From: Phoronis australis
Lineage: Eukaryota > Animalia > Phoronida
DNA: 64,000 nucleotides
Assembly: GCA_002633005.1 (NCBI GenBank)
Contig: NMRA01000008.1
Location: 1,255,974 to 1,319,973, forward strand
Reading direction: 5' to 3'
Shown: positions 1-61,323 of the stretch, piece by piece
Layout: the number at the start of each line of letters is the position of its first letter
Position numbering within the stretch: the first letter of the stretch is position 1
Translations under genes and position numbers: made by a program
Notes under the pieces: generated by a model
Told to the model about the DNA's origin: nothing
Databases searched by the model: none
Seen by the model: the letters and a program-made list of their open reading frames with translations, nothing else

Positions 1-390
1 TGAAGAGCTTTGTGGTTTAAAAACGTTAACACGCTCACCTGTTCTTGAATTAGTGACAAATAAGCTGTCAACTCCACTCACAGGTAATCCATACATGCAC
101 CTAGTATTCAGAAATTATAGGGCTGGCGATTTGTATGAAACACTTTTAAGTCGCTGATGGTTCTGCAATTCTTGATAGTGGAACTAGAGTCTTATCATGA
201 TGGTGAATGTATGAGACAGTATTTTGTGCAGTTAAATGTTAAACCCAGCTTTAATAGCCATGAAACTGGCAGCATTTAGTGCTTATTTATGCTTCTCTGT
301 ATTGTCACTGCGATATCCTGGTTCTCATAAAGGTGATCAAGTGTCGCATAGTCTCCGGTATTGTCACCTTGCAGTATGCGCTCCTTGCAG

Positions 391-34044: not shown

Positions 34045-37000
34045 ATGCAAGGTAAGACGCGGTTGATTATATACCTACATAATTAGCATCAAACATGATA
34101 TCGACGAGACAAATTTTAATTATGTCTCATTTGGGTTCAACCTTACTAAATACCGATTTCACTGAATATTTTTGAGTAATGCAGATTAAAGGTTCTTTAT
34201 AGAATAGGCAAACTTATCCTTAAAAATCGCAATACATACTAATGGAATTTATATTTGATTAGCGCGAGAAGTTTCATTCTAACCAAGTTAGTCGTGAAAA
34301 CCATCTTTGGTGTTCATCTGTTCCATTAGTAAAGCCCGTTAGGAAAGGTGAAAGTTCCATAGACACAGTTTATTTCAGTTCGAATATTCTTAGCAAAAAT
34401 CGGGCCGTTTCATTCATTCAGGCAATATAGATAAGCAGACTGGCATACAATTTGCCCGCGTTATACATGTGACCGTTCTGGGAAATCCCAGGGTTGCCAT
34501 AGGAACCGTGCTGAGTAAGAATAGTGCAGAATATTATGAACCCGGCTTTTTGGGTCTAACACATGCTTAGAATGACGAATAATGGGAAATCACCCTAAAA
34601 TCGACAGAAAACGTTTTCTGATTTCGGGCTTTCGCACTATGATTTCCCATAATTTGTCCTCGAGGCCGGAATAAGGGAACCGCAAACGGATATTCCAGAT
34701 AAGGCGGGAAATTTTCAACGAAAATATAAATGAGCACAACACTGTAGTAGTAATGATTCACATTAACAGTTCAACATGCAAACGCGCGGTAGGTATAAAG
34801 ATCTCTGAGTAATCTTCAGAGCGGTCTGTCACCAACTGAGACTGATCGCAGCTATAGCGAGTCAATACCAGTGGTTCAAATTTCATATTAGGGTTCAACA
34901 TGGTAATAAAGGCCTATGGTCCGAGTTTTAGTCAAAAAAAAACTCTTAACGGCGTTTTAGCCGATTTTTTGGTGTGATAGATTTAATTCCTCTCCAGTTG
35001 ATTTTTCTGTTGCTTGTATTCGATTAGCCCCTGATCACGAGAAAATCGTTACTTGCATTTACAGGAATAAGAAATACAGTGATCACAGCCCTCCTCTCTT
35101 TTGGTCTCATGGGCATCCAGTCGGCGTCAATCGGCGGCGTCAAGACGCAGCGAGACGTCGAGTCAACACAAACGAGCCATGGAAGATGTCACTGGTACAG
35201 ACCATGCGGGGGTGAGATAGAACAAGTCCAAATTAATACGACTCCGAGTGGACAAACCTTCAATCAAGCTTACAGAGACATGGCAGTAAAGGCTTTTGGA
35301 CTATCTAGACAGTCGCAAGATTTAAAGATATCCTACGTGAGTTTATTTTACAATTTAAGTCACTGACAGTTTGCGTACCGGTACGGTATATACTTTGTTG
35401 AGCGTCCGTAGTCGGATTACATTCGACTCGGTAAAATGGCTTTTCAGTCAGCCTAGCGGGGACAGGGGGGTGGTGTCCGATCAAGAGAATCAAATCGCAT
35501 TCAATACCCAAAATAAAATTTCCCGTATGTAGTGCCTCTCACTGAAAATTCTCTGCAACCGCCTACGCAGTGTTTAAAACCAAAACTGTAAAGACAACGG
35601 GCAACGCGTTTCGAAGAAATCGCAACCTGCCAGAACAACAACGTCCTACTGCATTAAATAGGTCGCATAAGTAATCGGAAAGGGCTATTGGGTGATAAGG
35701 TGATGGTTTGCGATAACTTGGCGGGTGACGCAAAATTGCAAGGCTTTTCAGACCTGTAGAAGTTCCCTTGATTTTAAAGTGTGCAAAATTTAGATTTACA
35801 CGCCATCGCAGTTGAATGAGACATTTATCAGTGCGAACTCGCAAATGTAGTAATGTGCTGTTTATGCCACCTCCATCCAGGAGAGAACGGTAAGAGTGTG
35901 TCAGGTCGTTTGTTTTCCAACTGCTCTACGAAACTTCTTAGATCTTCATAGGCATCTCATTTGAGTTTGTTTTGTATTTGTACGAATTCATATAGTGTAT
36001 TCGCACTATTGGACTGCACCTGCAAAATTATAATTGCATTAAGTTACTGGAATTATTTTTGGAGTGTGCAACTTGTGAGTTGTGTGTGAAGTTGAACCGT
36101 CCATTTGATTTGTCTCACGGGCTGTAAAGCCCCAGGCATAGTCTAGGTAGTCTGACCATAGACTGGTGGCCGCCTTGTCCTGTTGTGTTAAAACCGAAGG
36201 TAGATAATCTCCATTATTCAACCTAAATATTTGTTTCATTTTTGGCGGAAATTAGTCACGAAATGTTTTTAAATTTACATGCTCGTACTGACAGCGGCTC
36301 CTTGGCTTACTTCGCATTTGTCAGTTGATGAAAAAGGTGACCCAGGCTCATGGAAGTGAGGAAAGCACAAAAAATTCAGTATTTCAGGCTTCATGTCCAA
36401 GTCTCAATTTGCAGTACAATTGTCCGGTACTTCGTCTCTCATGGATCTATTATGAACAAATGGACGTCGTGCTCAACAAAACTTGTCTCAAGGAAAATTT
36501 GCTGCCGATATACTCCAAATAAAATATATATAACACATAGATAGGTGACTTGGTTTATGAAATTTCGAAAAGTGTCCATGAATTTTATCGCAGTTGTTGC
36601 CAACTTCACTGTATCCTTGATTAGTGTGAAAGTTTATTCTGCCTGTGTTGGAGCTGTTCACTGTAGTTATGCTGAGTGAAAATTAGTTTTAATTGACCAA
36701 GCGTCATTGGAGATTCTTTTTGGTGGGGAAGATGGACAATTAGAAATGGATTATTAACATTTGTGGTACCTGTATCATAGGTCTGTGATTTGCAAAAACT
36801 GTTAGCTCAATCCTGTTGTGTCAAAATTCTCGACTAAACCAAAGGCACTCTCATTACTCATTTGACTATATGTATCAGAACTTCTATATAATGTGGTGTA
36901 AAAATGCAGTGGCTGATACGTGTGCATGTGTGAGAACTTTTGTAGTGAGAACTGCCATGGTATGACTGGGTCCTCTGCTTTTTATGATAATTGCACCGTT

Positions 37001-38574
37001 TATTTAATTATTATTGACAGATCAAGAGAGCAATGCATGACCCGGAGTTTGCGAGTCTGTTTGATGCATTTCACTTCAACAAATTTCCTGTCAATCAAGT
37101 CACAGACAGCGCAGTGGAATTCGCCACAGAACACGTAAGTCAGATAATCACAACAGAATATCTATAAGGATATGTGTCACTTTATCAACAAGTGTGTAGT
37201 TGCCCAAATATCTACTGTAGAACAATGGGTTTTAACTCAGTGAAAGTTTTACATTTTCTGAAAGTAGAAAGCCTTTATTTATTTTTTTGTTTACTTTAAA
37301 GCTATAGTGTCTTGTGACCATATCTTTTTGTAGTAAAATTTAGCAAAAAGAATGGTTCGTTTATAGAAAAACAACATCATCATCAATAACGTGGCAAAGT
37401 TTTGATTGATAAAAATATTCACGATGAAATCTCAAAAATGCTGCTGATGCATGTCTTGCCGCTGATCATGATGTTGTTAACTCCATTGTTAACAATGCCC
37501 CCTGGTGCCAGATATCACATGTAAAGCTGAATTAACTCGTGTAATGTTGCACTGTCATCTCAGATAAAAAGTTACTAGTAACTTGCTTAACGTTACTTCA
37601 ATCGTATCCATACTGGTCCGCCATGGTATGTGACTCGTCCTTAGTTTTGCACTGCTTTATTTCAGACCGACACGTTTCTTGTTCAAACCTATCAAGAGAT
37701 GGCAACCATTTCCGTCTATCTTAACAGAGTGCGACTGGAGAACAAGCACTGGTCAGTAGGTGGCAACAGTATGTTCTACACCACCATCGACCAGATTTCT
37801 ATTCAATATTGTGATTTGATGTGCAGCCTCAACATCCATATCAAGGCAACTAAAGGTAAATTCAACACCCACATGCACACATGCAGTCAGGGATACCAAT
37901 TCTTTTGTTCATGTTGCCCTCGAGGCCTTAAAATCCATTTTGTGTTATGTCTAGTTCCCTGATCTACCTTAAGTCAACAAAACTTTCACGTACGAGTTAA
38001 GTGGTGTTTTGAACAACAGTCGAAACTTTAAAGCCTTTGGAACATCAAAAAATCGCTTTCGAAAAAATTCTGTAAACATATGCTCTTCAAGTAGAAATTG
38101 TTGAAATATATTTGAAACAGTTGTACAGAATGTTTTTCTTTGCTTTTGTTTTTAGAAACTTCCTCGAAATTTTGAAAATAGAATCGATGGCAGTTCTCCT
38201 AAATTTACCAGTCGATAAATAACTCAGTAAAATTTATTTAAAAAATTCCTGGCAAACCAATTGTTCTGGTAGGATTGGTGTGTGATTAACGTAAAAATGT
38301 GGGAAGCAGATGGACCAGTTGGAAGGAAATGTGAAATGTTTTGTGTTGGTATGATGTAAGTGAATTGTTTTACACTCATTGTTTTCTCGTTGTAGGTCTC
38401 GTAATACCGGAAACGGTCACCGAAGATGTTATAGATCCTCATTACGATAACTTGGGCTTCAGCGAGACCTACAAATATGTGCGCGACTACATAATAATTC
38501 GCGATTACAGTCACTACCTTAATTACTTGGGTGAAATGATGCAGGAGTTGGAGAATCTGCCTTCAAACCACTAA
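34045..38574 (+). CDS. Secreted helical cytokine-like protein A (putative IL-6/IL-11/Unpaired-type), 253 aa
   Basis: GT-AG exons 34045-34051, 35065-35336, 37021-37134, 37666-37855, 38396-38574 (762 nt, phases 1,0,0,1) give one open frame: MQGIRNTVITALLSFGLMGIQSASI...RCHWYRPCGG...QAYRDMAVKAFGLSRQSQDLKISYIKRAMHDPEF...TFLVQTYQEMATISVYLNRVRLE...IDQISIQYCDLMCSLNIHI...YKYVRDYIIIRDYSHYLNYLGEMMQELENLPSNH. Every exon and splice site is conserved in the paralog. The gene model is well supported; the family call is an inference. Confidence 0.88.
34476..34489 (+). promoter_or_regulatory. Overlapping STAT (GAS) and NF-kB consensus sites in intron 1 of gene A
   Basis: TTCTGGGAA (TTCN3GAA, 34476-34484) overlaps GGGAAATCCC (34480-34489); further kB-like sites at ~34584, ~34641 (-) and ~34706. 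Confidence 0.5.
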
Positions 38575-39470
38575 AGTGATAAAGCTGTTCCACGTTTCCC
38601 CGCACCCTATGTGGGGTGCCCAATTTGTACAGTTTATGATCCATCTGATATTCAGATTGGTTCGTAAGTTGTACAAAAATGTATGTGCTATGCACGTGTT
38701 ATAATTTTAAATAAATGATTGCTTAACATGTGATTTGATGACATCAAAACAGTTGTATGATTATGTTCCAGTTGTCTGAGACAATTACCAACCACTGGGT
38801 GCATAATTGTATTAATTTTTGATATCATGTGTTTGATAATTATTTTGATCTGTTAAAGGCTAGTATATCTATTTAGATATATTTCTCATGAGTGACTTCA
38901 GTAAAGATTTGTTATCATTAGCTTTTTTATTTTAAATTGTTTGTGAACTGGAATACAAATTAATAAGGAAATAGAAAAAGAACTACTGTAAAATGCAGTT
39001 ATGATATGTAGCTTCAAAGCTTTCTAAACAAACTTACTTGTAATAATGTAATGATGTAATAATGTAATAAATAAACTAACAATAATGAAGTGATGGAAAA
39101 ATTTTAATGAAAGGAATTTTAATAAATGTTTGTTAATACTTATTACATTCAGTGTTGTAAATCAACTGAGTGTGAAGTTGTGTAACCGTAACTCAGAGTG
39201 TTATAATCAAAAAATGTACTGTAGTTTTGTAATCATGAAGTACTTAATCCACTATCTTGTTTTGTTTTGTTTTGTTGTGTGTTGTTTTTGAAGTGTTATT
39301 ACAACTTGTTCATGATTTATGTGATGGGTTAGTACTGCAATATACTGCCAATAATTTATGCTAATTTATGCCTGTTATGTGAGACTGCTACTTAACCTGA
39401 GTTTTTGCTCCGTTTAAACTACTGCTTTTTCATTTGTGAACTGCTGATATTTCCTGATATTTATATCTCT

Positions 39471-39492
39471 TTATTTATTTATTTATTTATTT
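39471..39492 (+). promoter_or_regulatory. Clustered AU-rich element in the putative 3' UTR of gene A
   Basis: TTATTTATTTATTTATTTATT (overlapping ATTTA pentamers), with an equivalent cluster in gene B at ~61293-61323; a distal AATAAA lies at ~39704. Confidence 0.55.
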
Positions 39493-41047
39493 TTTTATTT
39501 GGATAAGTTGTTTAAGTAGCTGAATACCGCATTTTACTTAAAATTTCTAAGTTTCCCACAATATGTTTTTGGGTTTTCAATATGGTTAGTTAGGGTTCCA
39601 ACTGTCTATATCATGGAATATTAACTTAACATTCCTATGCAGAGTGTAAATATATAACTTGCCTGTACTGAAAGCATTCCTTTGTAATTCGTGGTTGTGG
39701 TGTAATAAATTATTAATATAAAACTGACTTTTATTTCATTAAATTCTATACATAACGAATTATTAACGTCAGCGGCAAAAGTGAAAAACACGAAGAAAAA
39801 TGAAATCAAACACTTTCACAATGGTCTGGTATTGTGGTTCTTATTGATTGATCTTTGCATCTGTTCACTTGAGCCGTCCGGGTCTCGGTGATTCATTTCA
39901 ACCAATGGCGTTTTGGGGATGAAGTTGCTGTAACAACATTAGGCCTACTGTTGAGTGTAGCGTTGTACAATCTGTGTTCTTAGAAATTTTCAAAATAGTT
40001 TGATCTGAAGTGATAGATCTCCTTTCGCATTTTAGAGAAGAAGAATGAAGATTTTTCAGTTTTCTCTTGAAATATTGGTAACGGCAAACAATTCGCTTGC
40101 GATTCTATCGTCATTCATCTGTTCCATAGGCGAGCAATATTTTCATGTTGTTTACTTTTTATCGTCGGCCGTCCGGTATCGCCATAGAAAACTGCGTAAT
40201 GTGGTGAAGAGCTACAGCTTTGTGTGTAGGCCTCACCCGCAGGCCCGTACCCAGCATTGCGCGGGAGTGGTTCGAATTTCTAAAACGGTGGACCTTAGAC
40301 ATTTTGCAAACGTCGGCACTAGAGTTCTCGGTTAGGCCCTTGACGCAGCTTAATTAGGGGGTTCCATGCTTTGCGTTCCTGAGATAAGACGAAATTTATA
40401 ATACTAGAAATCAAGATTGCCGTAACGGTTGCTCGCAAAGAACTAAACGCAAATTCAGATGTAACGTGGCTCAGAGTGTATCGCGTGCCGTAGCGGTGGA
40501 AGTGTAGCGCGTAAATTTACGAGCGAGACTTCGCTCGTATTTTACGACCGAAATCGTTATATCCAATGAAAAATTGGTTTGTCGGTTACGTGAGCTCTGA
40601 AGCAGTTGTGCGCTCGTAATATGTTTCGCTCGTACTTTTACGTTCGTAATTTTACGCTCGTATTTTTCGCATGTTATTAAGTATTCAGAAGGTAAAATCT
40701 CAGGTGCAAAGTCCAAAAGGTTGAAAATATCAAAGACTGACTGAAATGTTTTTACATCAGTTGCTCCCCTAACCATCCCAGACACTTGAAAGTGCTCCGT
40801 TTTAGTACATAATGATGTATCAAATGTCTGACAATGCTTCGATATTATTTTGTTAAAATAACTATGCTTTATCGTTTATTTCGACAACATCTCATTCTCT
40901 TACTCTTAACATTGCGTGCAAATGACATATGACGTTGCAAAAAACATTGGTTCCAAACGGTTTGAGGGGTTTATTTAATAGAATTTCTAAATGTTGCTGG
41001 TAAATCACTCACTCTTTATTCAAGACATTTGAATAAGAAACCATATG

Positions 41048-41335
41048 CCGTGGCAGATCTAGGATACCATATGGGCGGGGGGGGCAAAATGTTGCCTCGG
41101 GGAATTGGGCAACTCGTGGTTGTATGTGTACAGGCGTCTCGAAAGTTGCGGGGGCCAGGAGTATGAACCTTCTGTTCGTAAAATCTGTCGACTAAAATAA
41201 AAACGGGAACGCGATCCCGACGCGAACTGGGGTCTGAGCCCCCCACCCCCCTCCTCCGCTACCGGGCCTTGTTATATTTCCTCACGCTTCTTGCTGCTGC
41301 TGTTGCTGTTTCATTTTGCTTGCGGCAGCCAAGGG
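41048..41335 (-). mobile_element. Third copy of the CA..TG DNA element, truncated by the gap
   Basis: gtggcagatctaggataccat...tttcctcacgcttc...tgttgctgtttcattttgcttgcgg is the reverse complement of 32403-32729. Confidence 0.8.
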
Positions 41336-41914
41336 NNNNNNNNNNNNNNNNNNNNNNNNNNNNNNNNNNNNNNNNNNNNNNNNNNNNNNNNNNNNNNNNN
41401 NNNNNNNNNNNNNNNNNNNNNNNNNNNNNNNNNNNNNNNNNNNNNNNNNNNNNNNNNNNNNNNNNNNNNNNNNNNNNNNNNNNNNNNNNNNNNNNNNNNN
41501 NNNNNNNNNNNNNNNNNNNNNNNNNNNNNNNNNNNNNNNNNNNNNNNNNNNNNNNNNNNNNNNNNNNNNNNNNNNNNNNNNNNNNNNNNNNNNNNNNNNN
41601 NNNNNNNNNNNNNNNNNNNNNNNNNNNNNNNNNNNNNNNNNNNNNNNNNNNNNNNNNNNNNNNNNNNNNNNNNNNNNNNNNNNNNNNNNNNNNNNNNNNN
41701 NNNNNNNNNNNNNNNNNNNNNNNNNNNNNNNNNNNNNNNNNNNNNNNNNNNNNNNNNNNNNNNNNNNNNNNNNNNNNNNNNNNNNNNNNNNNNNNNNNNN
41801 NNNNNNNNNNNNNNNNNNNNNNNNNNNNNNNNNNNNNNNNNNNNNNNNNNNNNNNNNNNNNNNNNNNNNNNNNNNNNNNNNNNNNNNNNNNNNNNNNNNN
41901 NNNNNNNNNNNNNN
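41336..41914. other. Assembly gap (run of N)
   Basis: Continuous Ns. Confidence 0.99.
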
Positions 41915-44319
41915 AATAACTATTCAACTAGTGCACATTCTTTAAATGGTTACTAAATGGACACAAATACAAAACTTTATTTATGTCAGTTCCGACTAAT
42001 TAACAGACAATCAGAGTAATGAACTGTCGGAATTCTGGTTTCAGAATTCGAAGTAAGGAACTTTCGAAGGTAATGAACCTTCGGAGACGTGAATCTTGGA
42101 AACATACTCATTTTTATTGTTCGTATAAAATCTGCGAGGCTGTGCACCGTCGACACTGATTGACAAGAGAAGACTTTCGTCATTGACCAAAGTTCCTATT
42201 AGGCCTAGGGTTACTTTTCCCTTATAGTGTGAACATGCCTGTAGGAGATTTCTCAATGCAAGAAGTCACGGTAATTAAATGTCTGGTTTTTGAGCAACGA
42301 CGGAGGACTGACAATATTGAACTTACCATCGACGATTACTGGTGTGCGTTCAGTAGTCGTTAGGACCTACGCTAGGACCTGGCTAAAACCTAGTCAATGT
42401 CACGTGTTCTCATTTAAAATGCACGGCAATATCTCACGTAATCTCGCTAAGTCTTGCTTTTTAGCGAGGTCCTAGCGTTACTGAACGGGAGGCTGAATTT
42501 AAAAGAACGGAAACACATACACGCATGCGTTTCAATCCACCGATCCACAATCAAAATGGACACTAGATGAACAAAATATTTGACGATCACTTTCAATTCG
42601 AAATTTGAAAATGTCTGCACTTTATCGAGCTATGCTATCAAGTGTACCAAAATAGCAGACGACCAACATATTTTCTGCTGTTTGTTTTTTGATCGATTTT
42701 AAGGCAAAGGTCATTCAAGATCAAGGTCACTTGATTATTTCCCAATCGCTGTTACTTTCCTCCAAAAAAGGATTCTGAGTTTGGAAATTAGACGCTGGGC
42801 TCAGGCCTGACTGTCAGTTTTACGCTCGTCCTTGGCCGCAATCTTGCACTAGCGGGGTATGAGAAGAGTTAGTGGTATTGCGTCATAATTAGACCGGCAG
42901 TAAAAGGCCGCCTTGGCATAGATGAACGAGATACCATCATCTGACCATAACAGCACTTACAGTCCACCTCAGTATATACAGAAATGTACGTTTGCCGTTG
43001 TCTAGACTCTGGATGTGACCCCTGGGGACCTTACAAAGGGGACAAAAACGAGCTGATTACATATTCGAGGTACCGGCCAAAACTGATTTAAAACGGACAA
43101 TAGTACCGCACTGAACATCAAAATACACATGACAGAAAAACTGCACTGATACTGGAATGGGTCCGGCAGAAACCAAGAATGGACCCCAAAATGAGCGAGC
43201 TCATACATTCGAGGAACCACAAAAATCAATTCCATGTGATTCAATACATGCCACTGATCACTAAATGCCCCATGACAGACAAAATACACTCTGGGTTGTG
43301 CACTTCACTGAGAAATCCTCAAAAATGTCAACAACGGTAAGCCATTGGAAATTTGAGCTATATATTGGATATACGAGATACTGAGCTAAATCTGATTTAA
43401 AACGAACAATGGTACCTCACTGGACACCGAATGACCCATGCAGTCTGGAAAGCGTCCGCCAGAAAACCAAAAAGACCCCCCCCCCCCAAATGAGCTAGCT
43501 CATACATTCGAGATACCACAAAACAATTCCATGTGATTCAATACATGTCACTGGTCACCAAATGACCTATGACAGATAAATTACCCTCTGGGATGCCAGT
43601 GCCTGCTAGAAATCCCCAAAATTCTCAACTACGGTATGCCATCGAACGTTTGAGCTACATTAGACAATTGAGGTACCCTCTAAAATTGACTTAAAACCAA
43701 CAAACGTTCCGCATTGAACACCGAATGCCACGGCAAACCAAATGTCCTCTGGAAAAGGTTCACCAGAAGCTCAAAGGAGCTAGCTCATATATTCGAGGTA
43801 CCACAATAAACAATTCCATGTAATTCCAATAGATGTTACTGGTTACTAAAGGGCCTGTGAAAGACAAAACCCAATCTGGTTTGTGTGCGCCAGCCCCAGA
43901 AATCTCAACCACGTAATTCTGTTGCAAACGTGTGATACATTTGATGATAAAGGTTCCTGTTAAATTTTGGTGAAGTTCCATAGAATCAAGAACTTCGATA
44001 AGGAAGGTATTGTGATCACGTGCTTCGTTTGCAGTTATGGCGAATTCTTGTATTTCCGTAATACTTTCGCGTCCACCGATCTCTCGCCTTGCTTAAAATT
44101 AATAACAGCGTTAAACTGAGTTCCAAGAAGTTGATGGCGGAAAGTAATTTGGAAAATACCTGATAACACTAAAACTTTGGGATACCAGGAACTGTCACTT
44201 TCAAACAGCAACCCAAAAACTTAAAACAAGATAAAAGACACATTAAAATCACTGCATGGACGAGAACATTAGGTATACACATGTTTACACGTCAATAATA
44301 GTTTCTTGTTAGATTTTAT

Positions 44320-44945
44320 GTTTCACTATCAGATTCGTCACTGCTTCTCCAACTTGATTCGGGCTCGCTTGTTTCGTCATCAGTCCATTTCATTTCCTTC
44401 TTGATCGGCTTGTTTTCTTGAAAAGACCCGCACCTTCAAAAAGGACGACAGGAACGGCAGGTCCACAAAACCATTGGAGAGTATAATATCTATAATGTAG
44501 CTTCCATCAGTAGTTGAAAGTATTCCAAACGTTTCCTAAGACCATCGCAACATAATGGGCTCATTTAGCTTGTTCAGTAGTGTGTTTTGCAAGTAGAAAA
44601 CAATGCACTGTCTATCGTCTTGACGTTGGACATCGGGTTTTCTGGAAATAAATAGTGAGAAAACTTAATTGATGAGGAACCAACTGTCTAACAGTGGAAA
44701 AAACCTAGAGCCAGAACATCACTTACTGTCCTTTAAGCATCATCTGAGACTGGACCTTTTGGTTTAATACGACGGAAGCGTTATTTGAAATTATTTTCAT
44801 TGCATTTATCAACTATATTTTACCAATTATGATTATATTTCCGGTCATGTCGATTAATTTCAGATATCTCGCTTCATTATCTTCGACGCCCTCCTTCAAT
44901 CCAAACAGTATGCTTATGAAATTCTTCTAACTTTCTTTTGCCTGG
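44320..44945 (-). pseudogene. Decayed C-terminal fragment of an Academ-type (XPG-like domain) transposase
   Basis: Minus-strand frames give KLEEF..ILFG, GVEDNEARYLKL, IDSALFSTCK..LLNKLK*AHYVAMV, LQWFCGPAVP and an acidic tail DDETSEPESSWRSSDESDSET*. These resemble the VNEARY / LPPC..L..K..RA.Y...W / WF.G..P motifs; stops and frameshifts are present. Confidence 0.55.
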
Positions 44946-45570
44946 ACAAACGTTTGAGTTTACTATGAGGATGTGTTCTACTGTTGTTTTCGTGCTGGGT
45001 TCCTAAAAACGACGTCACCACTTTCCATCGACGAGTATTTTACAACAAGCTAGGTTGTTAGAGAACTCAACTAGGATTTAGGAATCGCTTAGTTTATAGC
45101 AGTCTGAAAATGGCTGGAGTCGGCGACCCATATCACAGACACAGTGTCGTGAGTGACGGAGACATATTGTTCACAGCAGCGGTGAAGAGGAATTTTTCAC
45201 GAACAGTCAGTGGGTAGATATAAGCTTGAGCGCGAGTATAATGAGACAGAAAATGCACAGAGACTTGCGGGATGAGGCAGAGACTGATGACACACCTGGT
45301 GGGACGTCTTGCTGCACGGTGTGCACTGTTATAATACAGGCCTATGCTGTTCCCACTGGATGGTGACCTGAGAACGTTGCGTAGACGGGTAACGCTGCTT
45401 TCTTCACACGAACGAGACAAAGGCGGCAGAGTGTTACCTTTCGGAAAGCTATGTAATGGCTTACCCAAAGTGCGCGTGAGACAATAATAGGTATACACCC
45501 CGATACGCAGCAGCCGTGCGGCATGCTGACTGACCGTAAACAAAGGCAAACGACGACCAGACTTATCACA

Positions 45571-45663
45571 ACCACAGGCACCTTTAATCAGCCCTCGACG
45601 ACATACCGTATAATAAAGAGAGTATCGGTATATCGTCGAGGGCTGATTAAAAGTGCCTGTGGT
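45571..45663. repeat. Near-perfect hairpin, 38-bp arms with 2 mismatches and a 17-nt loop
   Basis: accacaggcacctttaatcagccctcgacgacataccg pairs with cggtatatcgtcgagggctgattaaaagtgcctgtggt. Confidence 0.9.
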
Positions 45664-47308: not shown

Positions 47309-48362
47309 ATCTAGATGTCCTGCTTTTTGACACACGTCCAAACTAACATACTGTCATACACTACTGTGATTTCCCACGCAACATAGCCATATTTTCCCGC
47401 TCGACTTCCTTATCGAAGTTGCTGATTATACGAAACTCCAACAAGATTTAATCGGGATCTTCATTGTTAAATATATCACACATTTTCGACAGTGTGTTTT
47501 GGCTGTCACAAGCCATTTAGTAACCAGTAACATGTACAGTGTATTCGAATCACAGCGAGTTGTTTGTGTGGTACCTCAAATACATGAGTTAACTTCTTTT
47601 TTGGGTGTCGATTTTGAGTTTTTGGCGAATCCTTTCTGAAGGACAATTCGTCTGTCATGGGTCATCCAGTGCTCATTGCGGCACGATTGTTGGTTTATCA
47701 TGGGGCATTTAGTGACCAGTGACATGCACTGAATCACAAGGAATTGTTTTTTGTGTTATCTGGAATGTATGAGCTAGCTCATTTTTGGGTTCAGCGGACC
47801 GTTCCAGAGTTCAATTTGTCTGTCATGAATCATTTGGTGTTCAGAGCAGTACTATAAATCAGTTTAAGCTGGTACCTCGAATATTTAATCAAACACTAAT
47901 TTTCAGTGGTATACCGTGGTTGACATTTTTGGGGGTTTCTGGTGGGCACAACCCAGAGTGTATTTTGTCTGTCATGCGGCATTTAGTGGACAGTGACATA
48001 TATTGAATAAAATCGAATTATTTTTCTGTGGTACCTCGAATGTATGAGGTAACTCATTTTTTTTTGGGGGGGGGGCGTTTTTGGTTTCTGCCGGACCCAT
48101 TCCAGTATGCAATTTGTCTGTCATTAGTCATTCGATGTTGAGTGCAGTATTATTGTCCGTTTTTAATCAGTTTAATTGGGCGGTACCTCTAATATCTAAT
48201 CTAGGTCATTTTTGACCCCTTTGTGTCCCCAGGGTCACACCCAGAATGCAGATAACGGCAGAAATCCATTTCCGTATATACTGAGGTGGACTCCAAGTGC
48301 TCCTATGGTCAGATGTTGGTACCTTGCTCATCTATGCTAAGTGCTCTGGGCTGCCGGTCAAA

Positions 48363-49281: not shown

Positions 49282-49739
49282 TTGTTACTACTGTGAAATT
49301 TTCTTATGGGGAACAAAGTTGACTTCTGGGCAACAATTCTTGTTATTCCTTTCAACTTAGTTTTGTGCCACTAACCCTCTCATACCCTCGCTTCCTACAC
49401 AAGTAGATAAGCCGTCGTGTAAGATTGCGGCACTAAAGCGGATGGACAGGTCTGAGCCCAGCATCTAATTTCTGAAATCATACACACACGAGATACTCGA
49501 AACTTCAAGCTAAAGTCGCCATGTTTAGCCAGGCTAAAAGCGAAAATGGAATTACATCTTTTGCTCTACCATTTTAACTCGGTCACACAACACTCATTAT
49601 CATGACAGTATTTCCTGTTACCAACAAAAATCATGAAACCATCACTGGCTCACTCAAGAGTTTATATGCCAAGCTGGATGTGGTCAACACAAAAATTGCG
49701 AAGCCGAAACCAAATGGCGTATGAACACCGGCACTGCGG

Positions 49740-51340
49740 AATGTTGTGACGGGTTCTCATGGTTAAAGTATTGGAACCTCAGCGTGTTAATATCCAGCCA
49801 TTCCCATTGTTGAAATGTGGGGAACCCCTTTCAGTTTACTGTTTTGTACATGTAGTATGGCGACCACCTTTGACTTTAATATTTGCAATATATTAAAACG
49901 GTCAGTGATCGAAGTAAGAAAATCAAGGGAACCCCGATCCATTGGCTTACGCCCAAACAATGAGTGCATAAAGCGTGTGCAAGTGGTGGCGATGTGACCG
50001 GTATTGATGCTGTTACTACTCGGCAAATCTCTGCCCGCCTCATTAGAAGCGCGCTGCAAGGTCCGGATAGCTTTTCTTTGTAGTAAAATAAGATTGATTA
50101 ATTACACCCTGCAAGTTTTATTCAGACAAGGGTGAAAACTACAAAGACAAAAGCCGCAAAGAATTGTTTACATAAATCCTTTTCTCCATGCATGATATAC
50201 AAAGCTGTACGAAACGTGAGCTCAACTCTCCGTCGACGAGGGTGCTCAACTATCCTCCACATTCACATGAGTTAATTGAACCACTCGACAAATATTTCGT
50301 AACCATAAATGCAGAGCGAGATTTAACTCCAGTTGACCGTAACAATCATCTTCAAGATCCGTTGGCTTCAAGTTATACTCACAGCCCGACGACTATCGGC
50401 AATGAACGAACAGGTGTCTCAATCCACGCTGGTCTCCCCTCAGTGTACGGTTGTTCACTGGTCCTGGCTGATCTAGTGTAGCGGTGCCGGGATTTCAAAG
50501 AAAGTCCAACTCTGGAACCTCGTATCTTCATTTGGAAAAAAGTCTCATGACGACACTGCAGGATAACGTCACCCGTGGTCATCTCAATCGGGTCGTGGAC
50601 TTGCCGTCCTTCATCCTGGCATCGTAGCACTCGATCAGTTATGGAGGCCAAACAGCCTTTCGTCTTGTTTAGGGAAACCAGTGAATTTGGGTAACTTTCA
50701 ATTGGTTTCAGTTGTGAGTGAAGCATGCGATCTCTAGTGATAATATCGAAGATTGAACATATAACCTAATTAAAAATGGGTCAAAGGTCGACAGCAGTCA
50801 TCCCTTCATGACGTGGAGGAGTATAGTTGAGTGCAGTGTAAAAAGGAGACTTGAGCTCACACTTGCTCCAGTTGTGGTGCAATGATGGAGACAATTAAAT
50901 GCTCTATGGCTGGTGTTTTTATTTTCCGGTACTTTCAAATGTAACCCTATCTGCAACAACTTTAAATAACAGAGCCTTCTGTCAGACATTATGTGACAAA
51001 ACAAAGTTCCATTGGATACATTAGGCAACTCGCACGCCAACGCCATTTGCACACGAGTGGACGAGAATGCGCGCATCTTTCACCCACAGTGTCGACACTG
51101 GTTTCATCATGGTCCGATACATGCGCCATCTGTGGTTTTAATTACTTTGATATTTATTGCGGTGGCTGTTAATCCGGTACAGTGGGAACATTGGCGATTT
51201 ACTACGGTTGCTTATCTTAAGTATCTGAGGAAATGTTACCTATTTCTTTATTCCGGTGTGGCCTGTGGGAAACCATCTAAAGGCTTAATTGTTATGATTT
51301 AAATGAACTGGTCGCTATTCATGGTTTCGCCCAAATGTGT
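49740..51340 (-). mobile_element. Highly decayed DIRS-like (tyrosine recombinase) retrotransposon relic
   Basis: Minus strand, in DIRS order: RT-like HFLRYLR...TGLTATAINIKVIK (~51140-51250), a segment resembling the IL.AP.W....WFP motif (~50530-50580), and YR C-terminus-like KGVPHISTMGMAGY...EPV (~49745-49830). Many stops. Confidence 0.45.
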
Positions 51341-51577
51341 GCTACCCTCTAACACAGTACCAACTATACTGAAAAATGGCATTCTTGAAACATGATGAAC
51401 AACACACGGAATTCCGCGTGTAGGCATCAATGCCATGCCTAGGTTGGAAGTATGTCGATCACATCGCCACTACATCCAAAGGCCTTTAAAGGAGAATGCC
51501 ACAGAAAAAAACTATCAATTTAGATCGAGTAGTTCCTCTCGATAACAGCAATTTCAGTTGTTTTACCTGAAACCTGA

Positions 51578-51977
51578 GCCCGGTCTCCAATCTTTTTACT
51601 CGAAATGGAACTCGAAATTAGGTTTGGCATTTTCTACTCTACTTTTGGGCGAACTCAAGATAAGTCTCTAATATTCTATGCTCGAGTACACAATAACTTA
51701 CGTAGATAATTTATTGCCCTTTGTTCACAGTTTGTAAACCCAATATTAAAGCAATAAGTTCGGCTTTGAACTCGAAATTTCGAGTTTTTACTAGAGTTTG
51801 TACCACGAATATAAGGGTCTTCAAGGGCAAACTTGACCTAGAAACCTCTATGCATAAACTATAATGTATTCGAGCACAGTCTGATAACCAATTATCTTAA
51901 GTTCGCACAAAAGGAGCAGAGAAATTGCCAAGAATAGTTTCGAGTTCGTTTCAAGTACAAAGATTAGAGACCGGGCC
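51578..51977. mobile_element. PIF/Harbinger-like MITE, possible TGA TSD
   Basis: gcccggtctccaatcttt pairs with aaagattagagaccgggc; inner inverted blocks (ttttgggcgaact / agttcgcacaaaa); TGA at both flanks. Confidence 0.75.
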
Positions 51978-52956
51978 CTGACTGCAGACGGACGTGTTGA
52001 AATTAACCAATGACGTAATCGGTTCGAACGCTGTCTGTTCAGCCGAACACGCTTAGGCTTACTGGTGTCAACTTATCGCTTGAATTCATCGTTTTACACC
52101 AATAAATCATCAAAATTGGATGTAAAACCTTTACAAATACACCAAGTTCTTGAACAAACGTGTTGTTTTATTTCACTGTTACGGATTTATTTGAACGTAC
52201 TGTAGCCTACAGAGTTCTGTAGGCCAATTTACCATGGTCGATCGCGGGAGTTTGGGTCTGTTTGGTGATAAATTCGAATCATTCTTTCGTGAAATACAGA
52301 CAGGAGAACACAGCTTGGTGTTGTAATTTTATTCGTATGATTTTTTTCAGTTCTAAACACACAAAACACTTGTTATCCCAGCCAGTGGCTCGGAACTCGA
52401 TCAGGCCCGTCGCGGCCGCCGGCGGGATTGCACATCACGAACATAAACCAGCTTAAGTTGGAAACTAAACCTCTAGTCACGAAAAGAAATAATGTGCACG
52501 TAATTAGTTTGGTGAATTAGTCACGAAACTGAAAATCTACATACTCGTCCGGGGCAGCGGAGTCACTGAGGTTCCTCTTCCACAGAACCTTCAAGGCAAA
52601 AGTTGTACAATAACAATGATTTGAATAATGTATTTGTATATCTAAGTAAAGATTCCCCAAACATGGGACCATAGCATATAAGATCGAGTTATTGTTTCAC
52701 AACAGCTTCTGTCAGCAAATACTGAATTAATTAGCATGCGCTCACACGGCCTCGGTGCCCGGTGAATTATCTTTATTGCATCTAAAGACGGTAACGCAGT
52801 GTTTCACTCATTGCTGGCTTCTCAAAACATTTGCCCTCACGAATACTCCAAAGGCATTACAAATTGTATCTAACGAGACAGACTTTGTTTCAGTTTCATA
52901 TAGGCGTAGATTAGGGTGAGAATAATTCATTTCAACACAGAATAATAAACGTCAAC

Positions 52957-53375
52957 ATGGCGACTCGCAATCACGACTCAGGCGAGAGCTCATCCGACGC
53001 AGACTTTACAGGTGGATCGTTAGGTTTTACAGGCTATCAGTTCGAACCGCAATACACTGATCAAGAAATACTAAAGTGGCGCCATTAAAATGCACAGGCA
53101 ACGGAACGTATGGATAGTTCTTTGGTAAGCCGGCATTCGTTAGAGAAATCACTGTCGACGAAATGTCGGCCACATACACGGAGATGTTTCACGGCCTCAT
53201 ACTTGCTATTAACTGCGTACTTTTCATTCTTCACTTCCGCGAGTCACTTCCTAAGCAATTCGGGTTCTCGAGGAAGTCGAAAAAACGATATACCCGCTTT
53301 CTTCGCAGCTCTATAGTTCTGGCAAGCGGGAACTATGCACCGCAACATAGACTCTATTCACGCGGCGGCCATTAA
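52957..53375 (+). pseudogene. Possible relic of a Kolobok-associated P2X7-C-terminal-like (nanor-like) ORF
   Basis: caacATG start then MATRNHDSGESSSDADF...GYQFEPQYTDQEI (Y.FEP motif), stop, then TEMFHGLIL...VL; the Cys cluster expected in this family is absent. Confidence 0.3.
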
Positions 53376-54515
53376 AATCCAAAGCGAGGCTCACTGCGAT
53401 AAACAAAGCGGAAGTAGACATTGCGTGAGTTAAATAGCCGGTCTTTCGAGTCCAACCTGGATACTGAATTTTAATGATGTGTCGACAATTAACCACAGAG
53501 ACGCAGAAAATTACATTAGAGAACAAGTTAAGACGCCAAAGAGTTGTCTGACGAAAAGGTTAAATTTTTTCGGAAAACTAGGTTCGAAACATGAAAAGTA
53601 AATATGACCAAATTGCAGCAATCGTGGTGTTAAGGATTAGGTATTATGGTGAATGCAGGGTTACGTTTTTTCTTGTAAATTGTTGATCAAAATACTTTCT
53701 ACGCGGACCAGGTCATCTGCTCGTATTGTTGACGAGTTGCAGACATATTCGACAGTGGTGGCTGTCATGTGCAATTAGTCACATCTGGTTTAATTTGTTG
53801 ATCAAGAATATTAACATCAAGCATAGGATGATCCTATGCACTCACTGGGACTAACAGTTGATTTGTCATTGATCTGAAAGAATAGTTGATGTTATTAAAT
53901 ACATTTTTTATTAAAATAATAAACCAGGCTCGTAATTGAAAATAAAAATGATTTGACCATCAATTCTGCTTTCATGGTTGTAATAATTCTTACGTCTATT
54001 TCATGTGTTAGATATCAATCTGGACCAAGTTGAATTTTAAATTAAAACACCTAATTCGTTCGTCCAAAACATAACCTCGTTTTAGAACTCAATTTCAGTT
54101 AACTGGACAATGCAATCATAGTTATCATGTTTCTTCAGGAACCTCGTTCATCCGAGGGTAAAGGTGCCAGTGCGGCCTACTGAGAGGCGATTTTTTCGCC
54201 GAGTGAGAGCGGGAACAATCTACCTCCCGATCACCATCAATAGCACCCCCGCCCTGTTGCAAGCTCTCATAGGCTCTGTCTCAATTTAAAGTAGCCTTTT
54301 GTGCTCTTAAAAATTGTCACCTGTGTGGTTACAAATGACGTGAACTCAGAGAGATTTTTCACTAGGGGAATTTTTATACCTCGTGGGGGGGAATTTCGCG
54401 TGATATTTCAATATTTTTGAGAGGGGAATAGGACCGATATTGGGCCCCAAATTTTAGGGAATGAGGGCCCTGTTCTTTTTGGAAAGAAGAATTATAATGT
54501 TCGTTCAACCCGTAG

Positions 54516-54831
54516 CAGGGGCGGATCCAGGATTTTGAGTTGGGGGGGGGCAGGGCACAGGAATAAGCAGCATTTCGGCAGATGCGCGCGCCCAGCCTAA
54601 AATCTGGAGATGCAGGGGTCTTGAATTCTTGGGTTTGCGGACGTGTTGACTAAAAAAAAAAACGGTAAACCGAGGGTTCATTCAGCGCCTATGCGTTGTT
54701 TATTCACCCCCCAAAGACCCCCTGGTTGCGCTCGTGTGCTAGTCAGCAATTCGCACCCGAACTCAAAAATGGGATCTGATACAATTTTAGGGGGGGGGGG
54801 GGCACCCCCCTCCCCCAAATCCGTAGTCATG
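54516..54831. mobile_element. CAGGGGCGGATCCAGG-type non-autonomous DNA element
   Basis: End CAGGGGCGGATCCAGG followed by a G run; other end G run/C run then AAATCCG; same terminal type as 25712 and 32403 with a different interior. Confidence 0.55.
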
Positions 54832-56056
54832 AAAATACAGCCTGGCATTCTCCGTTCGTTACTACATGATGCTTGACAACTAGATGCGACAACATATGAT
54901 CTACTCATTTCGAAAACATTTATTTTACACGGACATATTTTGCTTCGTCACGGCGTATGGCAACGACCCAACGCTTCCGAATCTCACGTCTTTAGAGATT
55001 GTAAAGCAAACAGTTGCGTGTCCGAATTTTTTCAAGCCGTTCGCGGAACAATACGGACGGAAACACAGACTCCTATGCCGATAAGCTAACAGAGCTATCG
55101 TAGCGAGCCTCGTTTTGGAACGCGCCTCCTATCGGCGTGAATAGGGTCTATAGCGGCATTCACTCTGCAGACGTCGCTGCGTCGTTTCTCGCCTTCCTTA
55201 CAGGTTAACACGACACCTCTCGGCAAAAAGGTAAGGTCGACCGTGTGAGAGGCGATGTGGACATAGACCGATTAAGACGGTAAAAAGACTAATTAAATCG
55301 GGTAGCATTCTCTCTTAAGCATTGTACCTGCTTGGGCTTAAGCCAATGGACCGCGGATTGATTTTGTTTACTTCGATCACCGTATAGGGAAACAGTAACC
55401 AGAGAGGGGTTTCTCAGATTTCAACCAATGGGAATCACTGAATTCTATGACGTCGATTTCATTACTTTAACCAATGAGAACCCATTTTAAACAACATTCG
55501 AGAGTAGAGAGTGTAAAATGCGTATTGGATGAGATAAATTACTGTCGTGATAACGCGTCTGGTTATCGTACGAGTTTCAAAATAAAAAACGACCAATAAG
55601 TAAAGGCAATTGACCAACCTCACGGTTTTTTAAAATTGAAAAGTAAATAATAGCAGTCTTCGAATTTTTAAAAGCGGTGCATTATTAGAGAAATTAGGAA
55701 TAGTTTTTCTTCATGAGCCATGCGCATTAATTAACTTTTACATGCGAAACTTCCGCTTTTAACCAAGTTTCGGTAAGTGGGAGAGGATAATTCCGTTAGT
55801 TAATCTGCAAGCGGTCATCGATATGGTCGCTAGAGATAAACATCGAAACGAAATAAATTTCAAGTCAGTGATATAGATTTTGCAACTTCCCTAAAAAGTC
55901 AAGTATCGAATGAAAATCGATTCCAAGATTGTTAAAGCTATTCTATAGGTCCCCTAAAAAGCAAATGAGGGAAAGCCTCCTTGGACGCATGCATATGATC
56001 GCTAGCTAAAATCAGTAAATTGTATACAAGAAAAAAAAACCCCGGTTCAACTACTC

Positions 56057-56065
56057 TATATAAAG
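56057..56065 (+). promoter_or_regulatory. TATA box of cytokine-like gene B
   Basis: TATATAAAG 57 nt before the ATG at 56114; weak kB-like GGGAAAGCCT at 55969. Confidence 0.55.
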
Positions 56066-56113
56066 AATTTGAACATGAATTCAAACCAAGTTAGCATTAT
56101 ATTTTACTCAAGC

Positions 56114-59100
56114 ATGGAAGGTAAGAAGCGGTTGTGCGTAACGATAGATAAATAAGAAACATGGTCTCGATGCGGAGACAACTCTGAAGGCTTCATTTGG
56201 GTTCTGCCTTACGAAGTATTAAATTTGGTTACATCTTTCCAAGTAATACAGGTTCTAGGCTCTTTTGAATAGAAAAAGTTTTTATCTATGGAACCACGAT
56301 TTGTTCTAAGTAAATCATAAAGTGTATTACAGGCGGAAAAAGTTATACCTTACCAAGTTATTCGTGAAACCTATTTTTGGTCTTCGGCTGTTCCTTTAGA
56401 GAACTCTATTAAAAACAGTAAAACTCCCGTTGCATTTTTTAATATGTTTAAGAATATGAAAATAGGTTTCATTTTTTCACTCATAATCGATAGGAACGAC
56501 TCAACGGTAACGTCGCACGGTAATGGACGAACTTTGTATCGAACGAACGGGGCATAGTCACGAGCAACAATATTAACTGTCAGTTTCTTGAAAGACCAAA
56601 AGAACCTCTTCCCATCCCAGTAAGGAACAAGTTGAGCAAAGAATTGTAGCAGTTTTGTGACCTAAACCAAGAGTTAGTTTTTTGGCAGAACGCGGGTTTA
56701 TCGTCACCTAAATCTGGCGTACATAGCAAAGCATCATGCTAAACATTTATTGCTAGGTATGTAAGTGCATATGTTACATGTTTAGTTACAATTTGTTAAT
56801 TACTTGAGAATATAATGCATTGCAAAGAAATGGTTTAGTTTATTTGCGAATACGTATGTCCAATTTCACGTTTTTTTTTCTTTCCACTAACTTTGAATCT
56901 CTCAGAAATTTCACGCTTGAATTTTTAGGAATCAAAAATTCATCGATCGTCCTGATCCTCCTTGGCCCGTTCATCATGGACATCTTGTCGGCGCCAGTCG
57001 ACAGCAACGAGACGCAGCAAGTCGTTGAGTCAACGCAGACGATAAACCGCAGATGTCATTGGTACAGACCATGCATTAGTGAGATAGAACAGGTACAAGC
57101 TAACACGACACCAAGCGGACAACTCCTCAATGAAGCTTACCGAAACATGTCATTGAAGGCTTTTGGACTATCTATACAGTCACAAGATTTAAAGACATCC
57201 TACGTAAGATTTTGAAACATTTATTTGGATGAGTTTTAATCCAATCAAATTGTAGTGTTGGCTACTTCAGTATCGTTGTGAAAATTTATTAATTTCACCT
57301 GCTAAAACGCGTTTTTCAAACCAATGGGTAAGTCTTATTTCATAATTATCCCAGATGTATCAGCGTTTGGGATTTATTATCCTTAGCGGACGTTGATCGT
57401 TCCGCAGAAATCTTGGTGAGCATAATTAGTACAGTTATCAAGTAAAATGTTACGTCACACGTGAGAAGACGCACCATAACATCACCACGCGGCAGTAAAG
57501 GGTGTTTATTGGAGGCTGGTATTTGATGCAGGGAACCGTTCAAGTTCTGCTGTTGCCAAAACAGGAGTGCTGAATTGATTTTTGGATAACCTAATACACT
57601 GGTTAGAGAACCATACCGAGGGACAATTTATAGAGAAACCGGCGGATATAGCGTGTGGTGAAAAGAGTGTACGCACAACTTTGAAGCAAGTCTGACGGCC
57701 CGGGCATGGTGATGAGTTTTGGTTTAGTCCCGAGGGGGCGCAACCTTTGACTTCCTGAATTTTTCAAAGACGAAGAGTTTGACCTGACTGTTACCGATGG
57801 ACGGTATAGGCCTAGAGCCGGTACAGTGTGTTCCTTCGCAGCGCTCACCTGTGGTGAAAATGGCGTTACAAATGTCAATTCTGCGCAAGAACTTGGAATC
57901 CTGCTTAATCTCAAGATCGCGTATGCGTGAACTTGGATTACACGAGGAAACTTGACAACTTCACTCAAATAATCACGTTCACGTTGATAAAAATTTGCAC
58001 CGCACTAACTCAAATTACATATTAACAAATTAACGTAAATTTTAACCAATCTTTTTCTAACAATTCACAGTATACCTCCGATTCTGTGACACAAGTTACG
58101 CTAATGGAGGAAATGGATGATCATGAGGCCAACAATTACAAAACTCTTTACAATGACCAAAAAGTTCACCTGATTGCCCAAATGAATATTCAGTTCCAAG
58201 CTCACGCATTCACGATCTTGAGATTAAGCAGGATTCTAAGTTCTGTATTAGAATTTCGTTTCCGTTTTATACAACTTTATTTTTTTCGCAAAAACCACAT
58301 AAGTTTCTTTTTTGATAGCTTCTCATGCAAAAATGAAACATTTAAAAAACAATTCTTAAAACATTTTGGGGAACTGTGTGTAAAGCATAGTAGCTGAAAG
58401 ATTCATAAGAATTTACCTGCCGTTTCTGAAATAAGATATTCCGGAGTTGGCCAAAATTGGAAATTTTTATGGGCCCTATGTGACTTTAACATTTTGACGA
58501 ATCTGACTGGTGCTGGCGGAAACGGGCAACTGTGGCCAAAAACGTGTCTCGAATACGGCATCAATAATGGACCTCCTACCGGTGGTGTCTGCAACTATTC
58601 CGCGCCACTCTCAATTCTAGCCCGTTGTGTCTAAATCTTTGGGAACTGTCGATTGGCTGTTACATGCACCTTTGTGAGAACTTTCGCAGTGTGAACTGCC
58701 TTGGTGTGACAGGGTCCTTTGGCTTTTCATGATTATTGCACTGTTTATTCAATTATTATTGACAGATCAAGACAGCAATTCATGACCCGGAGTTTGCGAG
58801 TCTGTTTGATGCATTTCACTTCAACAAATTTCCTGTCAATCAAGTCACAGACAGCGTAGTGGAATTCGCCATAGAACACGTAAGACAGATAACGACATTA
58901 GAATATCTATAATGATATGTGTCACGTGATCAACAAGTGCGTATTTGCCCAAATATCTACAGAACAATGGATTTTAACTCAGTGAAAGATTTATATTTTC
59001 TGCAACTAGAAAGCCTTTATTTTCTACTTTAAAGCTATAGTGTCATGTGACCATATTTTTATGTAGTATTTAGTAAAATTTAGCAAAAAGAATGGTTCGT

Positions 59101-60767
59101 TTATAGAAAAACAACACCATGGCAAAATTTTGATCGATAAAAATATTCAAGATGAAATCTAAAAAATGCTGTTGATGCATGTCTTGCCGCTGATCATGAT
59201 GTTGTTAACACCATTGATAGCAATGCCCCTGGTATCAGTTATGACATGTCAAGCGGAGTAAACTCATGCAATGTTGCACTGTCTTCGCCGACAAAAATCA
59301 TTAGTACTTTGATAAACGTTAATTCAATCGTTTTAATAATTATCCGCCGTGGTACCTGACTTGTCCTTAAGTTTTGCACCGTTTTATTTCAGACCGACAC
59401 GTTCCTTGTTCAAACCTATCAAGAGATGGCAACCATTTCCGTCTATCTTAACAGAGTGCGACTGGAGAACAAGCACTGGTCAGTAGGTGGCAGCAGTATG
59501 TTCTACACTACCATCGACCAGATTTCTATTCAATATTGTGATTTGATGTGCAGCCTCAACATCCATATCAAGGCATTAAAAGGTAAAGACAAAACGCACA
59601 CGCCCACGCAGAGGCGCACGCAATCACCCGCAATCATTGGACTGTTTTTTTTCATGATGTCTTATAACGGCTAACCAAACACAAGTTTTTGGCATCACAA
59701 ATTCCTTCTTTTCTCACCTCCATTCTCTCTCGACAAATCGCTCACTTCCCAACGTTTACCATGTTTTCTTCATTTGTACATGACTTTGGAGTGAGCTGAA
59801 AAGCACTGATTGCACGATATCTGCACAATATAAGCATGTAATTCTGAAACCCGTTTGGAAACGAAATGCGCGAACATTTTTAAGTCTGGTCAGCACGCCA
59901 CCTGTGGCCACATCACGTGAACTGAATATAAGTATGAAAAGATTTCTGCCCCAACCGGGAATCGAACACGGAACCTTCTACTCAGTGGATTAGAGCTTGA
60001 CTACGGTTACAAGCGTTCGAGTCCCGCTTGAGGCAGAAGGCGTTTCAGACTTATATTCATTAGGTCACGTGATGTAGCCACAGGCGGTGTGCTGCACAAA
60101 GTAAACTGTTACTCTGAGCTTGTCAATTGATTGCTGACAATGTATGAAGAATTGGTTTCGATGTAATTTTACTGTAAATGTGCACACTTAAGGCCATGCG
60201 TCTAATTCCAAAATGCGTTTCTTTCACTCACGTTCTCCATGCAATAAGGCACACGAGCCTACTCTTTACTGTCTTGGGCACAGTCATCTACACACGTTAC
60301 TAAATTTGTGTTTTCCCAGGGTTTTCGTCCATTCTTAGAATTCACCTATATCGCCCAGGAGAGTTACAATTGAAGTAATTGTTAACGTAATAGTATCTAA
60401 CTTCCACAGGAAAGGATCTTAAATCTGCATGCTTGATTTTGTGGGTGTATGACGCTCATGGTTCTTATACTTTTCTATGGACAAAGTATAAGTTTCAGAT
60501 GATCACGATTTCTGCCACTGTGTAGTTTAATGTTCACTAAGAGGTATAATCCTGTAACTTTTTTCCACTCATCATCGTTATCTTTTGGTAGGTCTCACAA
60601 TACCAGAAGTGGTCAAAGAAGACGTGATAGACCGTCGTTACGCTAACATGGGCAACGAGTCCTACAAATACGTGCGTGACTTCATAATAATTCGGGATTA
60701 CAGTCACTACCTAAATTACTTGAGTAAACTAATGCTGGTGTTGGAAAATCTGTCTACGAACAACTAA
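56114..60767 (+). CDS. Secreted helical cytokine-like protein B (paralog of A), 253 aa
   Basis: GT-AG exons 56114-56120, 56929-57203, 58766-58879, 59393-59582, 60592-60767 (762 nt, phases 1,0,0,1): MEGIKNSSIVLILLGPFIMDILSAPV...RCHWYRPCIS...EAYRNMSLKAFGLSIQSQDLKTSYIKTAIHDPEF...YCDLMCSLNIHI...YKYVRDFIIIRDYSHYLNYLSKLMLVLENLSTNN. No stops or frameshifts. Confidence 0.88.
57877..58256. mobile_element. MITE in intron 2 of gene B
   Basis: agaacttggaatcctgcttaatctcaagatcgcgtatgcgtgaacttgga pairs with tccaagctcacgcattcacgatcttgagattaagcaggattctaagttct. Confidence 0.8.
59890..60094. mobile_element. Palindromic element whose arms contain tRNA-like T-arm/B-box sequence, in intron 4 of gene B
   Basis: cagcacgccacctgtggccacatcacgtga pairs with tcacgtgatgtagccacaggcggtgtgctg; GTTCGAGTCCC on + and GTTCGATTCCC on -. 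Confidence 0.7.
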
Positions 60768-61292: not shown

Positions 61293-61323
61293 TTTATTTA
61301 TTTATTTATATTTTGATTTATTT
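61293..61323 (+). promoter_or_regulatory. Clustered AU-rich element in the putative 3' UTR of gene B
   Basis: tttatttatttatttatattttgatttattt; AATAAA at ~61800. Confidence 0.55.

Follow-up and report, generated by a model that had tools for sequence, protein, structure and literature searches.

We analyzed a stretch of 64,000 nucleotides (nt) from the phoronid Phoronis australis (contig NMRA01000008.1, positions 1,255,974 to 1,319,973; hereafter the window), which carries two tandem five-exon genes, A and B, encoding putative helical cytokines (Table 1). All eight introns have GT..AG ends, as read from the sequence, with phases 1,0,0,1 in each gene, and both coding sequences (CDSs) are 762 nt long and translate into 253 amino acids (aa) without an internal stop. 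The spliced CDSs bear out an earlier note on this DNA, which had described two intact five-exon paralogs of 253 aa with an N-terminal hydrophobic stretch, four cysteines and a shared NTT sequon; the strings quoted there for helix A, the CD linker and helix D are from gene A, and gene B differs at these places. A six-frame profile scan found no third copy of the cytokine gene within the window.

Table 1. Positions of the two genes and associated features in the window
Feature	Position	Strand	Basis and remarks
Gene A exon 1, coding part, 7 nt	34045..34051	+	ATG and GT donor, as in gene B; phase-1 intron follows; zero RNA reads
Gene A exon 2: predicted signal peptide, N-terminal segment (Cys44, Cys50), predicted helix A	35065..35336	+	Helix A aligns with helix 52-81 in the Rhodnius model; zero RNA reads
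Gene A exon 3, 114 nt: last part of helix A region, then predicted AB loop	37021..37134	+	Donor backed by RNA joint 37134>37666
Gene A exon 4: predicted helices B and C, Cys180 and Cys184	37666..37855	+	Acceptor backed by RNA; AlphaFold of the exon
Gene A exon 5: predicted CD loop, helix D, stop	38396..38574	+	HMMER match, E 6e-4; hhalign 92% against hemipteran alignment; sense-strand RNA
Likely gene A 3' untranslated region (UTR), with AU-rich block	38575..39558	+	Sense-strand reads to ~39558; motif scan
Gene B exon 1, coding part, 7 nt	56114..56120	+	Mirrors gene A; zero RNA reads
Gene B exon 2	56929..57203	+	79% nt identity to A exon 2; zero RNA reads
Gene B exon 3	58766..58879	+	110/114 nt identical to A; RNA joint 58879>59393, may come from gene A
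Gene B exon 4	59393..59582	+	184/190 nt identical to A
Gene B exon 5 and stop	60592..60767	+	Best of 1,668 six-frame segments against hemipteran-only profile; RNA depth <=0.24
Homogenised tract, ~970 bp, end of intron 2 to exon 4	36910..37880	+	Counterpart 58654-59607; likely gene conversion

The two proteins are identical in 193 of 254 aligned columns, with cysteines at residues 44, 50, 180 and 184 in A and 45, 51, 181 and 185 in B, and B carries five sequons in addition to the common one. Their sole strongly hydrophobic stretch is N-terminal (Kyte-Doolittle 11-residue maximum of 2.2 in A and 2.9 in B, with at most 1.1 and 1.4, respectively, beyond residue 30), and by hydropathy and the (-3,-1) rule only, both have a signal peptide and no transmembrane segment. 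Cleavage is predicted near residue 22 to 24, where the (-3,-1) rule allows it, and the proteins are probably secreted. We also observe that the first cysteine is directly preceded by Arg in A (35175-35189) or Arg-Arg in B (57045-57056), a possible propeptide cleavage site, and that exon 2 upstream of these residues is the fastest-diverging part.

The exons of A and B align, whereas introns 1, 2 and 4 and the upstream regions are unalignable, and the ratio of nonsynonymous to synonymous divergence (dN/dS) in mature exon 2 and exon 5, outside the homogenised tract, is 0.153/0.42 (0.36). Since frame and splice sites have been kept in five exons at this divergence and between unalignable introns, the resemblance is beyond chance: A and B are real tandem paralogs under selection. 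The tract itself, intron 3 included, is 87% identical at the nt level (88% of aligned bases in intron 3 alone), exons 3 and 4 together are 97% identical, and their dS of 0.045 is about ten times lower than that of the rest. Because the tract is so much more alike than its surroundings, the part encoding the AB loop and helices B and C has likely been homogenised between A and B by gene conversion. The near identity of exons 3 and 4, together with a 579-N scaffold gap between the genes (41336-41914) that makes their spacing uncertain, might also be taken to mean that A and B are haplotypes of one gene, or unlinked copies, put in tandem by the assembly. We find this hardly credible, given the dS of 0.42 outside the tract and the unalignable introns and upstream regions; RNA from other samples departs from gene A at a few percent of sites only, and the gap bears on the distance between the genes but not on their paralogy.

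With respect to transcription, we used three raw RNA runs, of each of which 18-19% was read, and one contig set, all selected by species label, with intron joints listed at at least 3 reads. The joint between exons 3 and 4 of gene A (GT..AG) is covered by 9 reads with 8 starts, all in one direction; exon 5 has a sense-strand depth of 1.5-2.7 in all three raw runs, and reads in the same direction as the joint cover exon 5 and the downstream kilobase at depth 1-4. Gene A is transcribed and partly spliced (exon 3-4 only) at a low level. A partly spliced transcript is present in these 9 reads, the lack of any spliced transcript having been named in the earlier note as a point against its reading, and of the four junctions that it had proposed to confirm by RNA one is backed, while no joint across introns 1, 2 or 4 is listed at the 3-read threshold.

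Exons 1 and 2 of both genes have no reads in any of the four runs. Sense reads do cover the last kilobase of gene A intron 2 (35870-36954, depth up to 8), and with exons 1-2 empty and intron 3 spliced, they reflect either intron retention or an internal start. For gene B, the exon 3-4 joint has 4 reads, but with exons 3-4 so nearly identical these could stem from gene A, and exon 5 reaches a depth of at most 0.24. Zero depth over exons 1-2, the intron 2 reads and the near-empty exon 5 of B are what would be expected if the family assignment were right and one or both copies silent, with B unexpressed and A giving mainly 5'-truncated or intron-2-retaining RNA without signal peptide and helix A. 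We consider such silence improbable, as the open reading frames and splice sites of both genes are intact at a dN/dS of 0.36 and the RNA consists of single-digit, 3'-weighted depth from the sampled fraction of each run, of unknown tissue and treatment. Low resting RNA and the AU-rich blocks that a motif scan found after both genes (39471-39490 for A, 61294-61310 for B) would fit an inducible cytokine, the blocks being simple TTTA repeats and, as such, weak evidence. A gap of 251 nt (38879-39131) in three reads from the probable gene A 3' UTR has the non-canonical ends TA..TT and is probably due to a deletion in one allele. Intron 4 of gene B contains a partly palindromic dispersed repeat (59873-60090) that is RNA-abundant on both strands, with related pieces near 57890-58240.

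Searched singly, at the lower sensitivity of single exons, the eight exons matched no Pfam family, unrelated families included, against which the earlier note had set its reading, and none of the eight matched the Unpaired (Upd) family PF15972 at E<=10. Exons 2 and 4 gave no match in word-index searches, and for none of the single exons was a homologue found in Pfam, among PDB sequences or close by in the databases. A two-sequence profile of exon 5 retrieved one protein at E<=0.001 from 1.84 billion representatives (P0001, E 6e-4), and a search seeded with P0001 yielded three proteins among 590 candidates, namely Rhodnius prolixus T1IEV2 (XP_073998466.1, 244 aa), a Logan protein and Cimex lectularius LOC106670563 (248 aa), with T1IEV2 and LOC106670563 both annotated as uncharacterized. 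Because exon 5 had been the bait, the other exons were tested separately. A profile of five relatives scores spliced A at 45.4 bits and B at 40.1 (1,000 shuffles, <=9.7; reversed proteins, <0), and it aligns A as one collinear domain over residues 41-244. Cut before helix D, the profile gives residues 44-194 of A 17.4 bits, a score not attained once in 2,000 residue shuffles or in 2,000 block shuffles, and gives B 12.4 bits, reached by no residue shuffle and five block shuffles of A (2,000 each). When all 1,668 six-frame segments of the window are scored against the hemipteran-only profile, the top five places all go to exons of A and B. The match is strongest in helix D (hhalign 92%) and weakest in helix A (hhalign 13%, 11 columns).

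On the strength of these sequence comparisons, A and B are homologous to uncharacterized hemipteran proteins. T1IEV2 and LOC106670563 are alike in length, have a hydrophobic N-terminus and show, in the same order, W-x-x-P-C, a helix-B pattern, a helix-C cysteine and a helix-D R-D-[WY]-x-I-x-R; cysteines 50 and 184 (gene A numbering) are conserved in the hemipteran proteins. This is in line with the earlier note, whose motifs (W-x-x-P-C, helix-C Cys and R-D-[WY]-x-x-x-R-D-Y), offered there as Upd-like, line up with these proteins found by search. Identity is nevertheless only ~20-31%, and unlike their relatives A and B have a second cysteine pair (44, 180), a shorter AB loop and no helix-D cysteine. 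If the proteins were secreted and helical but unrelated, with a chance likeness to the hemipteran proteins in the last exon, this would explain the absence of homologues for the single exons and an entry E-value of just 6e-4. Set against the collinear, non-circular profile match of exons 2-4, the shuffle, block-shuffle, reversed and six-frame controls, and an independent route, ESM, that leads to the same clan, a chance resemblance appears very improbable.

The full-length Rhodnius relative is predicted to form a long-chain class I four-helix bundle that superposes on IL-6-type cytokines, and the AlphaFold model of gene A exon 4 has helices at 3-26 and 35-62 (mean predicted local distance difference test score, 80.9), a helix-loop-helix matching helices B and C. 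The precursor length of 253 aa falls within the ~150-280 aa given for long-chain class I helical cytokines (PMC13081863). From sequence and modelled fold, we consider it very probable that A and B are helical cytokines of the long-chain class I type and belong to an as yet unnamed invertebrate family that is Upd/IL-6-like. Two points limit this reading. The fold was modelled on the Rhodnius relative and on exon 4 alone, so that the four-helix bundle proposed in the earlier note stands as a prediction for the relative and for helices B and C. Furthermore, the link to Drosophila Unpaired is weak, resting on one sub-threshold Pfam match of the Rhodnius relative (PF15972, E 0.024, 14.6 bits over helices B-C, below the gathering cut-off of 27 bits); sub-threshold matches occur in two of seven alignment members, both Rhodnius. 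The expected match to an Unpaired profile failed to appear for the window exons, the comparison being made via the Pfam family only, and A and B are not filed as Unpaired because they do not reach the Pfam cut-off.

In the VIA-align comparison of the Rhodnius relative, the three best rows are gp130-family members (root mean square deviation, 2.5-3.3), against 4.4 for prolactin, growth hormone and placental lactogen, for which there was also no sequence match. The gp130-family rows comprise CLCF1 (8d7h_D), IL-11 (8qy4_A), CNTF (1cnt), IL-27p28 (7u7n_D), IL-6 (1alu) and LIF (7n0a_C), with a sequence identity in the structural alignments of only 9-12%. Proteins of the same fold and family could also be antagonists, or endocrine or developmental hormones (prolactin-, growth hormone- or leptin-like) that use a short class I receptor, instead of immune ligands of gp130/Domeless-type receptors. 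This we regard as unlikely, in view of the three best rows and because the only invertebrate proteins of this general kind with tested function in the cited papers use Domeless: Drosophila Unpaired 1-3 (PF15972) and the Upd-like protein of Aedes aegypti (AAEL028247) are secreted Domeless/JAK/STAT ligands, and the latter is described as inducing Socs through Dome (10.1101/2025.09.21.677592). Upd homologues have been placed within Diptera in the accounts given by two preprints (10.1101/2025.09.21.677592; 10.64898/2026.10.23.761461).

Like A and B, the IL-6 and IL-11 genes have five exons and four introns, one of them in the signal-peptide region (in IL-11, 7 bp from the start). Their intron phases are 1,0,0,0, so that three of four agree with A and B, intron 4 being in phase 1 rather than 0. 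The arrangement of N-terminal and helix-C cysteines appears more like that of LIF. A putative IL-12p35-like cytokine of the oyster may be mentioned beside these. The IL-6 cysteine signature, given as Cx9Cx6GLx2Yx3F (PMC3271213), is absent from A and B, whose cysteine spacings are 6 and 4 residues, and for this reason they are not filed as IL-6 proper. IL-6 proper adjoins TOMM7 (PMC13081863); the upstream neighbour of A and B is TCERG1, and the downstream neighbour lies beyond the window. Class II interferons are described as having five exons with phases 0-0-0-0, which sets A and B (1,0,0,1) apart from interferons, although those of lamprey and lancelet are likewise small secreted helical proteins of five exons found by gene structure and fold (10.64898/2026.05.30.728932). 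Shrimp Vago4, described as a Domeless ligand (10.64898/2026.10.26.761873), and oyster CgIFNLP, an interferon-like protein (PMC8218723), are set beside A and B by description only.

Taken together, we consider it likely that the intact paralogs A and B are secreted four-helix cytokines, homologous to hemipteran Upd-like proteins, that would signal via dimerisation of a Domeless/gp130-type receptor to JAK/STAT; action through such a receptor, argued by analogy, is in itself a probable one. In the predicted layout, helix A (~61-90) is joined by a long AB loop, encoded in exon 3, to helices B and C of exon 4, and a CD loop containing Pro leads on to helix D (~218-248); the N-terminal cysteine pair is probably disulfide-tethered to the two helix-C cysteines. 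LIF has a similar tether from its N-terminus to helix C (Cys12-134 and Cys18-131). Expression would be low at rest and induced by infection or injury, the receptor would be this animal's Domeless/gp130 homologue, and the ligand, in keeping with class I cytokines, would bring two receptor chains together and so turn on JAK/STAT. IL-6 is described as having three receptor-binding sites and Domeless as a gp130 homologue (PMC7378365). Rhodnius T1IEV2, with its Cimex homologue LOC106670563, becomes a candidate hemipteran Domeless ligand on the modelled fold. Gene conversion homogenising the B/C core while helices A and D diverge could tune receptor affinity.

More tentatively, and with the balance somewhat against it, A and B may belong to one ancient, unnamed bilaterian cytokine family ancestral to insect Unpaired and vertebrate gp130 cytokines. 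The coexistence of insect-type motifs with an IL-11/IL-6-like five-exon layout (7-nt first exon) would form a bridge favouring common descent over convergence. If true, this would supply the missing Domeless/gp130 ligand of the phylum; A and B, which share a gene-converted B/C core but differ in helices A and D, would then amount to a natural experiment in receptor tuning. IL-6-type ligands are reported as not found in most invertebrates (PMC13203501) and, in the annotations discussed in a 2025 paper, in tunicates, amphioxus and cyclostomes (PMC12284397); structure-guided work has since filled this gap in lampreys (PMC13081863) and in mosquitoes (10.1101/2025.09.21.677592). We found no literature on this family outside insects and vertebrates, in a search that left most subscription journals and supplements (e.g., the trees of the Aedes preprints, in which non-dipteran members might be included) uncovered. 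A and B are exact, cloneable candidate ligands in a further lineage, tied by sequence to unnamed hemipteran proteins, and with them the missing-ligand question can be put to a direct test.

Upstream of both genes, the closest coding sequence found comes from a TCERG1-like gene, whose 3' half with WW_TCERG1 and FF domains (~236-11890, + strand) can serve as a synteny marker, and among 137 stop-free segments of at least 70 aa in the window no coding genes other than TCERG1 and A/B were found. The observed/expected CpG ratio is 0.55-0.81 over the first 24 kb, including TCERG1, and mostly 0.9-1.2 beyond, a mosaic pattern expected of an invertebrate with gene-body methylation and not of a vertebrate. 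Tandem duplications lie at 850-1805 (~450 bp) and 24317-25239 (~460 bp, 99% identical), the latter split by a single N at 24778 and possibly an assembly artefact. Between genes A and B, an inverted pair of a nested repeat family (42912-43966 and 47405-48341) shows ~76% identity over 680 bp.
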